DNA of 40,033 bases from a virus, in UHGV virus genome UHGV-0235137; one strand, written 5' to 3'. The translations under genes were made by a program, and so were the position numbers. The notes below the pieces were generated by a model. That model saw only the letters and a list, made by a program, of their open reading frames with translations, was not told the origin of the DNA and did no database searches. Numbering within the stretch: the stretch's first letter is position 1; each line of letters starts with the position of its first letter. Of the stretch, positions 811-2,506 are shown piece after piece.

Positions 811-886
811 GGAAGTGTAGCAGAATGGTGATGCGGCAGACTTTTAATCTGACAGGCGATGGGTTCGAATCCCTCCACTTCTACCA
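811..886 (+). tRNA. tRNA-Lys (anticodon UUU), copy 1
   Basis: acceptor ggaagtg/cacttct, anticodon loop ctTTTaa, T-loop ttcgaat, CCA at 884-886; near-identical paralog at 2431-2506. Confidence 0.7.
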
Positions 887-890
887 ATAT

Positions 891-967
891 GGTTCAGTCG
901 CAGATAAGGTAATGCAGGGGTCTCATAAGCCCTATGAATGTGGGTTCGATTCCCATCTGAACCTCCA
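891..967 (+). tRNA. tRNA-Met (anticodon CAU; initiator, elongator or Ile2 type not resolved)
   Basis: perfect acceptor ggttcag/ctgaacc, anticodon hairpin ggggt-ctCATaa-gccct, T-arm gtggg-ttcgatt-cccat, CCA at 965-967. Confidence 0.85.
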
Positions 968-968
968 A

Positions 969-1044
969 GCTGGTATAGTTAAGAAGGTTATAACACTCCC
1001 CTGATAAGGGAACATCGGTGGTTCGATTCCACCTACCAGTACCA
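969..1044 (+). tRNA. tRNA-Ile (anticodon GAU)
   Basis: acceptor gctggta/taccagt, anticodon loop ctGATaa, T-arm ggtgg-ttcgatt-ccacc, CCA at 1042-1044. Confidence 0.85.
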
Positions 1045-1059
1045 ATTTCAATAAAGTTG

Positions 1060-1088
1060 TTGACATTGAGATGTGACCACTTTATAGT
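1060..1088 (+). promoter_or_regulatory. sigma70-type promoter: -35 TTGACA (1060-1065), 17-bp spacer, -10 TATAGT (1083-1088)
   Basis: exact -35 consensus, 17-nt spacer and a 5/6 -10 hexamer, directly downstream of tRNA-Ile. Confidence 0.5.
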
Positions 1089-1321
1089 AACCTTAGTTTT
1101 CGTTGCGTAGCGTCTATTTTGCAAATTTAAAATAAATGCAAACGACAATGTTTTTCTGGCAGTAGCTTGATAGGCTAAACACCAGTGAGGTCTTCCAATC
1201 CCTCATCAAAGAATTTGGCGTACTCGCCCACGGTATGATTAATAAGGTGGGCAACATTCTAAAGGGTATCCCTTATGGGGCTTGGCTTAAATGCAATGAG
1301 TACCCTTTAAAATGTTAATTA

Positions 1322-1403
1322 CGGGGCGTATCTCAGCGGTCTTCTAAACCGCCGTTAACCGAGTAAGTGGAGTATGCGGGTTCGAGTCCTGCCGCCTCGA
1401 CCA
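1322..1403 (+). tRNA. non-canonical tRNA-like gene; anticodon hairpin suggests Arg (UCU), but D-arm not identifiable
   Basis: 7-bp acceptor cggggcg/cgcctcg, canonical T-arm gcggg-ttcgagt-cctgc, CCA at 1401-1403, hairpin gcggt-ctTCTaa-accgc; only 7 nt between acceptor and that hairpin and 23 nt after it. Confidence 0.5.
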
Positions 1404-1418
1404 ATTTTGGATGAAATC

Positions 1419-1766
1419 ATGAAAACTTGTATTAGGTGCAAACTTAGCAAGGATGAAAGTGATTTCTACATGAAAGATGGTAGGAGAACTCATTCATACT
1501 GTAAAAAGTGTGTTAATGAGCAAACCATAGAAAGACAAAGAGCACTTAAACTTTCAGCTATTGAGTACAAAGGTGGGGTTTGTCATGATTGTGGTAAAAG
1601 GTATCATCCAGCAGTGTATGACTTCCATCATTTGAATCCTTCAGAGAAAGATTTTAACATTGGTCATAGAAAAAGTCTTAAGTTCTCTCAGGAGCTAAAG
1701 GACGAACTTGACAAATGTGTTTTGCTATGTTCAAATTGCCATAGGGTAAGACATGCAAAGTATTAG
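1419..1766 (+). CDS. HNH endonuclease (zinc-finger-containing, homing-type)
   Basis: ORF track 1374-1766 trimmed to the first ATG outside the upstream tRNA; CxxC pairs and HH...N...CxxCH motif (FHHLNP...CSNCHRVRH); paralog of 2684-3097. Confidence 0.8.
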   Translation: MKTCIRCKLSKDESDFYMKDGRRTHSYCKKCVNEQTIERQRALKLSAIEYKGGVCHDCGKRYHPAVYDFHHLNPSEKDFNIGHRKSLKFSQELKDELDKCVLLCSNCHRVRHAKY

Positions 1767-1903
1767 TTAGCAGATTGCTTAGACGACCTTATCGGGTCTC
1801 CGTGTAAGGAGGTGGTCTGTATCTCATGTTTTCCAGAACATGTAAATAATCTGAGAAGGGGCTTTACAGTGTTGCGAAAATACGGTAAGCTTCGAATTAT
1901 AGT

Positions 1904-1986
1904 ATGGGACGATGTTAAGACTCTAAGGCATGAGCAACGGCTTCCAACACCGTTTCAAAGGGGTTCAACTCCTCCGTCCCATGCCA
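1904..1986 (+). tRNA. non-canonical tRNA-like gene, probable tRNA-Trp (anticodon CCA) with about 7 extra nt in the D region
   Basis: acceptor atgggac/gtcccat, anticodon hairpin acgg(c)-ttCCAac-(a)ccgt, T-loop ttcaact, discriminator G, CCA at 1984-1986. Confidence 0.55.
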
Positions 1987-1999
1987 AAGTCTTATTAGG

Positions 2000-2087
2000 G
2001 GTAGGTAGCGGCTAATGGTAGCCAAGCAGTCTTGAAAACTGTTGCCACTGTAGAGATACGGTGAGGGTTCGACTCCTTTACTTACCG
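2000..2087 (+). tRNA. tRNA-Ser (anticodon UGA), long variable arm
   Basis: acceptor ggtaggt/acttacc, anticodon hairpin gcagt-ctTGAaa-actgt, long variable arm, T-loop ttcgact; CCA not encoded. Confidence 0.8.
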
Positions 2088-2245
2088 CCTAATAAGATTT
2101 TACACCGTCCATGCTTGCTCGCATTTTCGGTTTATCCCTCGTGTATTGTCGTACACACTGATAAAACACCTAGTAGGTGTCACGGAGAAGAGATAATATC
2201 AAGCTCTCCAAAGGTTCTAGTCACCGGATTAAACAAGACTATGCA

Positions 2246-2266
2246 AAGACCTATTTAGGTCTTTTT
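2246..2266 (+). terminator. possible intrinsic terminator inside the tRNA array
   Basis: hairpin aagacc-tattta-ggtctt followed by ttttta; AT-rich stem so weak. Confidence 0.3.
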
Positions 2267-2345
2267 AGAGGGCTTCTAAGGTTATTACAGCTTGTTGTGG
2301 AACCTTGTTGCTTAGGTTCTTAGAAGTTCTCTAAAAAGATTTAAT

Positions 2346-2423
2346 GGGAGATTGACGGTAATTGGTAAACCTACCATCCTTAGAAGTTGGTGTTTGAGGG
2401 TTCGAATCCCTTGTCTCCTACCA
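2346..2423 (+). tRNA. tRNA with anticodon UAG (Leu by anticodon) but short variable arm
   Basis: acceptor gggagat/gtctcct (with G-U pairs), D-loop with GG, anticodon hairpin ccatc-ctTAGaa-gttgg (one U-U mismatch), T-arm gaggg-ttcgaat-ccctt, A73, CCA at 2421-2423. Confidence 0.6.
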
Positions 2424-2430
2424 AATTAAT

Positions 2431-2506
2431 GCAGGTGTAGCAAAATGGTTATGCGGCAGACTTTTAATCTGACAGGCGATGGGTTCGAATCCCTCCACCT
2501 GTACCA
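2431..2506 (+). tRNA. tRNA-Lys (anticodon UUU), copy 2
   Basis: acceptor gcaggtg/cacctgt; body from D-arm to T-arm identical to copy 1 apart from two D-region substitutions; CCA at 2504-2506. Confidence 0.7.

Follow-up and report, generated by a model that had tools for sequence, protein, structure and literature searches.

A chimeric tRNA-Lys(UUU) gene in the tRNA cluster of a Felix O1-like phage

How can two transfer RNA (tRNA) genes of one phage share the same body and yet differ in their acceptor stems on both strands, with base pairing preserved in each? The question is raised by two tRNA-Lys(UUU) genes, referred to here as copy 1 and copy 2, in UHGV virus genome UHGV-0235137, from which a stretch of 40,033 nucleotides (nt), hereafter the window, was analyzed as a whole. 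The window contains the tRNA cluster of a phage related to Felix O1 (Felixounavirus): over its first 5 kb, it shares 93-97% identity with Salmonella phage Felix O1 and the Escherichia phages SP22, GEP101 and KEP1, many further Felixounavirus genomes match the same 5 kb, and ARAGORN places 19 tRNA genes within 94-4621. The cluster is a mosaic, GEP101-like at about 99% over 176-2675 and nearest to KEP1 (3346-5200) and IME338 over 3094-5200. Comparison with these relatives answers the question, in that copy 2 is a chimera combining the acceptor stem and D-arm of a Lys(CUU) paralog with the anticodon arm, variable loop and T-loop of the Lys(UUU) paralog; very probably, it arose by recent gene conversion between these two known paralogs.

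The two tRNA-Lys genes and the ancestral state of copy 2

Pairwise alignment of the two genes (70 of 76 positions identical) gives six differences, at positions 2 (G in copy 1, C in copy 2), 4 (A/G), 13 (G/A), 20 (G/T), 69 (T/C) and 71 (C/G), with positions 21 to 68 the same in both. Four of the six belong to two compensated acceptor pairs, 2:71 (G-C versus C-G) and 4:69 (A-T versus G-C), so that both stems, GGAAGTG/CACTTCT in copy 1 and GCAGGTG/CACCTGT in copy 2, are fully paired, each with a G1.U72 wobble. ARAGORN and the alignment therefore agree with the description given by an earlier, sequence-only reading of this DNA: two tRNA-Lys(UUU) genes with one body, apart from two changes in the D-region, and with compensated stems. 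Both genes score well above the Rfam gathering score of 29 for the tRNA model RF00005 (Table 1), and both have the anticodon TTT, A73 and an encoded CCA. In Escherichia coli, the identity set of lysyl-tRNA synthetase (LysRS) consists of the anticodon bases U35 and U36 (with U34) and the discriminator A73; these elements are carried by both genes.

The slot occupied by copy 2, between tRNA-Leu(UAG) and tRNA-Ala(UGC), holds a tRNA-Lys(CUU) gene in Felix O1, GEP101, KEP1 and IME338, in SUSP1 (Suspvirus), in Moogle and Michonne (Mooglevirus), in DaR-2019b and in 17 IMG/VR contigs. This CUU gene is near-invariant, with one identical sequence in 26 loci, and in the published gene table of Felix O1 the orthologous genes are entered as Lys TTT and Lys(2) CTT (Table 1 of Whichard et al. 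2010, PMC3185647). Copy 1 is the conserved UUU gene, matching its counterparts in Felix O1 and in 24 further loci at 76 of 76 positions, and 157 phage records match it with at least 99% identity over an 88-nt query. The UUU and CUU paralogs, which are located about 1.6 kb apart in the genus, differ at 14 of 76 positions (2, 4, 13, 20, 28, 33, 40, 42, 43, 46, 57, 59, 69 and 71, where 33 is the wobble base), including compensated pairs in the acceptor stem (2:71 and 4:69) and the anticodon stem (28:40). Copy 2 is of the CUU type at 2, 4, 13, 20, 69 and 71, and carries the copy-1 base at all eight inner sites (28, 33, 40, 42, 43, 46, 57 and 59). Its slot and flanks are thus those of the CUU ortholog, since from 2300 to 2675 only one base outside the tract described below differs from GEP101, while its body has neither the anticodon CUU nor the CUU-type stem (U28-A40, G26.U42), variable loop and T-loop.

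In about 250 related phage genomes, each paralog retains its own acceptor stem, which indicates that stem pairing is under ordinary purifying selection. Because the same stems occur in these relatives, whose bodies differ at eight further positions and in the anticodon, the stems are older than the identity of the bodies, and the differences between them are best read as retained ancestral differences between two isoacceptor genes. The copy-1 stem has itself drifted with compensation, the 3:70 pair changing from A-U to G-C in SUSP1 and DaR-2019b. In Erwinia phage Roscha1, a Lys(UUU) and a Lys(CUU) gene are located side by side; this pair is too divergent from that of Felix O1 for an alignment useful in dating the duplication.

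Several irregularities of fold are common to both Lys tRNAs of the window and the ancestral CUU gene, namely a D-stem of 3 bp, the G1.U72 wobble, and a T-stem with three G-C pairs that contains either U50.U64 and A49.C65 oppositions or a bulged U50 (U50 is replaced by C in SUSP1, Michonne and DaR-2019b). At 27:43, the opposition is G.A in the UUU type and G.U in the CUU type.

The extent of the exchanged segment is defined by comparison with GEP101, the closest relative. From 1094 to 2675, the two sequences align without gaps and with 17 mismatches in 1582 nt, of which eight lie inside the minimal tract (Table 1) and all eight correspond to the copy-1 base. For a given 32-nt window, the binomial probability of holding at least eight of the 17 mismatches is 5.8e-10, or about 9e-7 when corrected for all window positions. 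The changes are clustered and match the paralog, unconverted paralog-specific sites stand on either side, and the background is near-identical, as in gene conversion. The shared body of the two Lys genes is thus, as far as sequence comparison can tell, no product of chance, and its cause appears to be an identifiable recombination tract rather than differential selection: the bodies would be identical in this genome only because an internal tract of 32-48 nt in copy 2 was overwritten by copy 1.

The chimera is absent from the phage records searched: a megablast search with 2425-2512 against 50,697 records returned 252 matching genomes with a best identity of 93.1%. In IMG/VR, the exact pattern of the UUU-type body was found at 20 loci, all of them copy 1, and no chimera was present; a junction-specific pattern had no match in JGI metagenomes or GTDB genomes. 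As the allele was not found in the collections searched, it appears to be recent or private, and its singleton status argues against a selected, spreading allele.

Table 1. Features of the tRNA cluster and its surroundings, in window coordinates
Feature	Coordinates	Strand	Description
tRNA-Lys(UUU), copy 1	811..886	+	ARAGORN tRNA-Lys(ttt); Rfam 54.4 bits; conserved Felixounavirus Lys(UUU); tract donor
Chimeric tRNA-Lys(UUU), copy 2	2431..2506	+	ARAGORN tRNA-Lys(ttt); Rfam 54.5 bits; slot Leu-UAG / Lys / Ala-UGC; positions 1-20 and 69-76 of CUU type, centre of copy-1 type
Minimal tract of probable gene conversion	2458..2489	+	tRNA positions 28-59; 8 substitutions relative to ancestral Lys(CUU), one of them the anticodon change C34>T
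Maximal tract	2451-2498	+	tRNA positions 21-68; bounded by runs of 7 nt and 9 nt identical between the paralogs
HNH homing-endonuclease-like open reading frame (ORF)	2684..3097	+	Between tRNA-Gly and tRNA-Thr; Pfam HNH 19.5 bits, below the cut-off of 21.4
Small HNH-like ORF	1419..1766	+	Between the two Lys genes; Pfam HNH 16.7 bits, below the cut-off of 21.4
Hybrid tRNA-Leu(UAA)	3348..3426	+	5' 24 nt as in the Leu(CAA) paralog, remainder as in Leu(UAA)
Sigma-70-like promoter	1060-1088		TTGACA-17-TATAGT, 11/12 matches
tmRNA-like RNA	1095-1262		Unannotated
Tag frame of the tmRNA-like RNA	1138-1167		Resume codon 1138; stops 1168-1173
Small module	1271-1318		Stem AAAGGGTA/TACCCTTT around conserved CCCTTATGGGGCTTGGCTTAAATGCA
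tRNA-like gene	1322-1403		Missed by ARAGORN; Rfam tRNA 31.7 bits
Circularly permuted tRNA-like element	531-661		T-arm and 3' acceptor strand precede 5' acceptor strand and D-arm
Permuted element, T-arm	586-602
Permuted element, 3' acceptor strand	603-609
Permuted element, linker	610-613
Permuted element, 5' acceptor strand	614-620
Permuted element, D-arm	623-637
Repeated module	25-82, 440-516, 531-661 (possibly ~3190-3270)		Ends (G/A)CAGAAGACCnnnTTCAGCAA ... nnnGGTCTGG

Routes to the chimera and competing explanations

In the mechanism that we propose, the lineage leading to this genome would have undergone a short non-reciprocal recombination that transferred the middle of the UUU gene to the CUU gene, over a tract no shorter than the minimal and no longer than the maximal one, changing the anticodon from CUU to UUU and leaving the acceptor stem and D-arm of the CUU gene in place. 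Since the flanks of the two genes are unrelated, such a tract must start and end within the 76-nt island of homology, and one that covered a single acceptor strand would create G-G or A-C type oppositions at 2:71 or 4:69 and would presumably be selected against. With its ends confined to the gene and half-converted helices selected against, internal tracts would be the likeliest to survive; both chimeras encountered, that of the window and a mirror-image case described below, have the internal-tract form.

Free-standing homing endonuclease genes in phage tRNA regions accompany recombination, and a plausible route to the patch is break repair with a short excursion onto the paralog, the break perhaps being made by an adjacent homing endonuclease. 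The HNH homing-endonuclease-like ORF that starts 178 nt 3' of the chimeric gene is a possible source of this double-strand break. It is absent from GEP101, whose colinearity with the window stops at 2675, and its Felix O1 ortholog is annotated as HNH endonuclease ORF47. Felix O1 also has an annotated HNH endonuclease, ORF45, in the interval from tRNA-Ile to tRNA-Ser that holds the small HNH-like ORF in the window, and six HNH genes in all (PMC3185647).

Exchange between tRNA paralogs is recurrent in this cluster. A mirror-image chimera is found at 7722-7797 of the contig IMGVR_UViG_3300045988_004180 (L072), where a gene in the copy-1 slot, with copy-1 flanks and acceptor stem, is of the CUU type over positions 20-59 and has the anticodon CUU; among isolate genomes, this allele has no match with at least 99% identity. 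In Salmonella phage DaR-2019b, copy 1 (L026:3507) has a CUU-type T-loop (A57, U59). The hybrid tRNA-Leu(UAA) of the window likewise reads as a second paralog-paralog recombination in the same cluster. Its junction is located within the shared CCAATTGGCAGAG (3359-3371), and the stretch that separates the two Leu genes in relatives, with Arg-ACG, a 558-nt ORF and Gln-UUG, has been lost; it measures 822 nt in GEP101 coordinates and about 0.9 kb in Felix O1. The hybrid sequence together with this loss points to a crossover within CCAATTGGCAGAG. The same Leu hybrid occurs in IME338, Si3 and FM4b, and because the allele is common to these phages, products of such an exchange appear viable and heritable. 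It has the lowest Rfam score (34.7 bits) of the 17 cluster genes called by both ARAGORN and the Rfam tRNA model, and its acceptor stem, as read from the sequence, contains a U2.G71 wobble and a G7.A66 mismatch. For the Lys genes, the mirror-image conversion and the singleton status of the window allele argue for undirected exchange.

The product of the chimera is probably still a chargeable tRNA-Lys, judging by its anticodon UUU, A73, intact stem and encoded CCA, and its predicted cloverleaf (-16.6 to -16.9 kcal/mol) is within the parental range of -15.0 to -18.4. Nonetheless, several observations weigh against the gene-conversion reading. The identical runs that flank the tract are just 7 and 9 nt long, which is short for classical homologous recombination, and the chimera is a singleton, for which a consensus or polishing artefact is formally possible. 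The minimum-free-energy structure given by ViennaRNA for the unmodified chimera is not a cloverleaf (-20.6 kcal/mol), although thermodynamic folding of the three Lys tRNAs is uninformative for unmodified tRNA. In the chimera, A13, in a D-arm from one paralog, faces a variable loop from the other, with G at linear position 46, so that tertiary contacts could suffer. Finally, because the anticodon of copy 2 was converted, the phage has two Lys(UUU) genes and no Lys(CUU), a loss that looks costly given that 285 of 617 Lys codons (46%) in the 25 long ORFs of the window are AAG, with any compensating benefit being arguable. The authors of the Felix O1 genome found AAG over-represented and served by a phage tRNA, and held Lys(CUU) to be beneficial (PMC3185647). 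We infer that the loss of Lys(CUU) is neutral to mildly costly and not adaptive, which is consistent with a rare allele.

Among the explanations that dispense with recombination, eight independent point mutations that happened to make copy 2 resemble copy 1 can practically be dismissed: the chance that all eight would arrive at the base of the paralog is about (1/3)^8 = 1.5e-4, and the eight changes are packed into 32 nt of a block that is otherwise 99.4% identical. An artefact of assembly or consensus, in which copy-1 reads were misplaced on copy 2 during assembly or polishing, would account for an allele that is a singleton across all collections searched, yet it is very unlikely. The ancestral paralogs have no shared exact run longer than 10 nt, so assemblers and mappers would not be expected to confuse them; moreover, the tract is clean with sharp borders, a mirror-image chimera exists on an independent contig, and four isolates that were sequenced independently carry hybrid Leu genes. 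The sequence-only reading had taken identical bodies with different stems as a sign of selection on the stem; spelled out as an explanation, this would make the genes recent Lys(UUU) duplicates whose bodies are held identical and whose stems diverged, for example for nuclease escape, charging or processing. The compensated stem differences are in keeping with this view, as are the nicking of tRNA acceptor stems by the retron Eco2 defence (PMC12916289) and the rescue of other phages from PARIS and PrrC by their own tRNA-Lys (PMC12409363; PMC11555353). However, it is contradicted by the recombination tract and by the age of the stems, which are the same in about 250 relatives with differing bodies and anticodons; the identity of the bodies is unique to this genome among the collections searched, and the listed Eco2 substrates do not include tRNA-Lys (PMC12916289). 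Differential selection on the stem is thus highly improbable.

Gene conversion could also have been adaptive, the patch being kept either for a doubled dose of tRNA-Lys(UUU) against nucleases of the PrrC or PARIS type or for the loss of a nuclease site from copy 2. E. coli has tRNA-Lys(UUU) only, with a sequence 100% identical in at least 5,425 of 5,426 complete genomes, and this host tRNA is the target of both PrrC and AriB (PMC11555353, PMC12409363). Counter-defence by phage tRNA-Lys is documented for T5, which counters PARIS AriB (PMC12409363), and for the T5-like phage SP15, which counters PrrC170 (PMC11555353); to this extent the sequence-only reading was right in naming tRNA-Lys as a nuclease target, while nothing ties the pattern seen in the window to it. 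The anticodon loop, CUUUUAA, is the same in both phage genes and in E. coli tRNA-Lys, so that loop variants of the kind needed for evasion of PrrC are not present and an escape from PrrC through loop changes is rejected. The anticodon stem is GCAGA/UCUGA in the phage and GUUGA/UCAAU in the host. AriB cleaves the host tRNA at U36-A-A-U-C|A41, where A41>C substantially inhibits cleavage, and resistance mutations in T5 tRNA-Lys are U39>A, A41>C and U16>C (PMC12409363). At these determinants, the Lys genes of the window have U39 and C40 as in the host, U at 41 (A in the host, C in T5), U16, and no nucleotide 17. The motif UAAUCA occurs in the host and in the ancestral phage Lys(CUU), and UAAUCU in the UUU-type arm, so that the host-like AriB motif is gone from copy 2 as a result of the arm brought in by the conversion. 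This loss allows the adaptive explanation but does not support it. AriB also needs contacts elsewhere in the tRNA (PMC12409363). The singleton allele and the existence of the reciprocal UUU>CUU event, as undirected exchange predicts, also speak against an adaptive patch, as do the codon usage and the reported benefit of Lys(CUU) given above, and we regard it as unlikely. There is a similarly slim chance that body-swapping with untouched stems serves as a recurrent, selectable switch between CUU and UUU, or as a replacement of the UAAUCA by the UAAUCU arm, that tunes tRNA supply against hosts in which PARIS- or PrrC-type nucleases deplete tRNA-Lys(UUU).

A tmRNA-like RNA and other structured elements of the cluster

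The interval between the two Lys genes contains an unannotated RNA that resembles transfer-messenger RNA (tmRNA), preceded on its 5' side by the best sigma-70-like promoter of the region (Table 1). Homologs are found in 633 phage records from unrelated groups, including Felixounavirus, Kolesnikvirus, Kuttervirus, HK620-like lambdoid phages, N4-like phages and Klebsiella siphoviruses. Of 5426 complete E. coli genomes, 135 also have a homolog. The HK620-like lambdoid copies are located between qut and the late terminator, and in the one E. coli prophage region inspected the copy is found between Q and the holin gene. None of the 25 E. coli matches listed has an annotation of this RNA, and among the phage matches listed there is at most an occasional label of "hypothetical protein" or "promoter".

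In 81 of 82 distinct copies, the RNA contains a tag frame of 10 codons, which is without a start codon and begins with GCA or GCT just after ATAAAT. Its consensus is AND..(F/Y/V)L(A/M)(V/A)A, with many synonymous changes and no insertions or deletions; the window encodes ANDNVFLAVA, compared with ANDENYALAA for the tag of E. coli tmRNA, and in Moogle the tmRNA routine of ARAGORN picks the same resume context and tag. The stop codon is placed in a hairpin loop and is followed by two pseudoknots supported by covariation (~1168-1262), in which 97.7% of alignment cells are paired and 12 of 25 pairs show double changes; none of 500 shuffles reaches these values, and slid controls give 32-44% paired cells. 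No tRNA-like domain belonging to the RNA was found, and Rfam matches to tmRNA families are sub-threshold only. The one "permuted tmRNA" called by ARAGORN, in Moogle, joins an unrelated permuted tRNA-like element to tRNA-Lys and is considered spurious.

The 5' arm of the RNA, from 1095 to the resume context (to about 1123 in the predicted duplex), is antisense to nt ~54-106 of host tmRNA, an interval that takes in the 3' portion of PK1, the A-rich segment upstream, the resume codon and the first five codons of the tag. In L110, a prophage copy from E. coli, TAGTTTTCGTC is the reverse complement of ssrA 96-106 without a mismatch, and TTTGCGGTTTTTTA is that of ssrA 68-81 with one mismatch in 14 positions. 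Five phage groups were tested; in four, the best duplex prediction stops at ssrA 106, and in the fifth (Cba120) it covers the same region with one outlying helix to nt 139; predicted energies across the five groups range from -22.6 to -47.2 kcal/mol. The arm matches the codons of the host and not those of the phage RNA itself. Because the target is near-invariant across Enterobacterales, a test of co-variation between arm and host tmRNA is without power. As a working hypothesis, the RNA may dock on host tmRNA and block or replace the host tag frame, so that the C-terminal LAA degron would become AVA or MAA. Our literature searches returned no description of a tmRNA-like phage RNA of this kind, and the only phage form in the tmRNA database paper is one that consists of the tRNA-like domain alone (PMC11915505). 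This RNA is more consequential and probably far more novel than the Lys finding.

Other structured elements are located nearby. In every context inspected, the tmRNA-like RNA is flanked either by real tRNAs or by a small module built around CCCTTATGGGGCTTGGCTTAAATGCA (Table 1) together with related D-armless tRNA-like hairpins; in the late leader of the E. coli prophage (L110:2410-2460), the same module has the stem AAGAGCA/TGCTCTT. These modules and hairpins may be processing punctuation of the RNase P/Z type. In Escherichia phage Cba120 (L030, record 133738-136232) and other Kuttervirus loci, the tmRNA-like RNA lies in some 2 kb of gene-free DNA, in which several hairpins resembling a T-arm (GGTTCGAnTCC) occur and ARAGORN leaves at least one tRNA-like fold (acceptor GACGAGG/CCTCGTC) uncalled.

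The tRNA-like gene that follows the small module in the window has the acceptor CGGGGCG/CGCCTCG with G3.U70 (bases 1324 and 1397), A73 and CCA, a signature of alanine identity. It is without a D-arm and has a hairpin loop CTTCTAA, a long variable region and a normal T-arm. The same slot holds a canonical tRNA-Arg(UCU) in Moogle, SUSP1, Michonne and IME338, and the variant of the window in GEP101; candidate interpretations are a remodelled Arg tRNA, an Ala-accepting tRNA-like RNA or a pseudogene.

Upstream of copy 1, the circularly permuted tRNA-like element is enclosed by an outer helix, AGACCGTT/AACGGTCT (534-541 with 652-659). Acceptor variants in relatives (ACTCGGC/GTCGAGT, ACCCTTC/GAAGGGT and ACACGTT/GGCGTGT) keep seven pairs, and a variant at the single locus L070 keeps six; linkers are 2-8 nt long, one variant encoding GCCA. 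This element serves as the "3' tRNA domain" in the dubious permuted-tmRNA call of ARAGORN in Moogle. Its interval also belongs to a repeated module that lies between tRNA sub-clusters, the ends of which pair and, as read from sequence only, covary between copies (GACCGT/ACGGTC versus GACCAA/TTGGTC).

Significance and comparison with known systems

The Lys finding adds a new case to a known class of events, and its stakes are modest. It provides a clean and datable one-step switch of an isoacceptor anticodon in a virulent phage, through a conversion tract of 32-48 nt. An identical core with compensated ends in duplicated structured RNAs can reflect conversion of an internal tract combined with selection against half-converted helices, and need not mean adaptive evolution of the stem. 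Phage tRNA repertoires, on which arguments about codon usage and counter-defence are based, can change by such events; here Lys(CUU) was lost despite heavy use of AAG.

The closest comparison is with Felix O1 and other Felixounavirus, Mooglevirus and Suspvirus genomes, which share both Lys loci and their synteny (Asp ... Lys-Met-Ile and Leu(UAG)-Lys-Ala-Gly). In Felix O1-type genomes, copy 1 is identical throughout and the acceptor stem, D-arm and flanks of copy 2 are those of the window; in the window, and in none of about 250 Felix O1-like phage records, copy 2 has the anticodon arm, variable loop and T-loop of copy 1, and hence UUU in place of CUU. Phage tRNA regions with homing endonucleases likewise have HNH-like ORFs among their tRNA genes, and the presence or absence of these ORFs marks mosaic breakpoints; ordinary homing, however, co-converts the flanks from an allelic donor, whereas the donor in the window is a paralog 1.6 kb away. 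The tRNA-Lys genes of T5 and SP15 resemble those of the window in that a virulent enterobacterial phage encodes its own tRNA-Lys(UUU) with an anticodon stem unlike that of the host. They differ in their resistance changes, while the anticodon loop in the window is that of the host and its acceptor stems are unrelated to the T5 determinants. Isoacceptor anticodon shifts, or remolding of tRNA genes, and the concerted evolution of tRNA families were reportedly treated by Rogers and Griffiths-Jones in 2014. As in the window, a syntenic tRNA gene takes the anticodon of an isoacceptor for the same amino acid, and exchange between paralogs homogenizes part of the genes. Those shifts are eukaryotic or organellar and usually consist of single anticodon substitutions, whereas the window presents one multi-site conversion tract in a virulent phage, with a mirror-image event in a relative.

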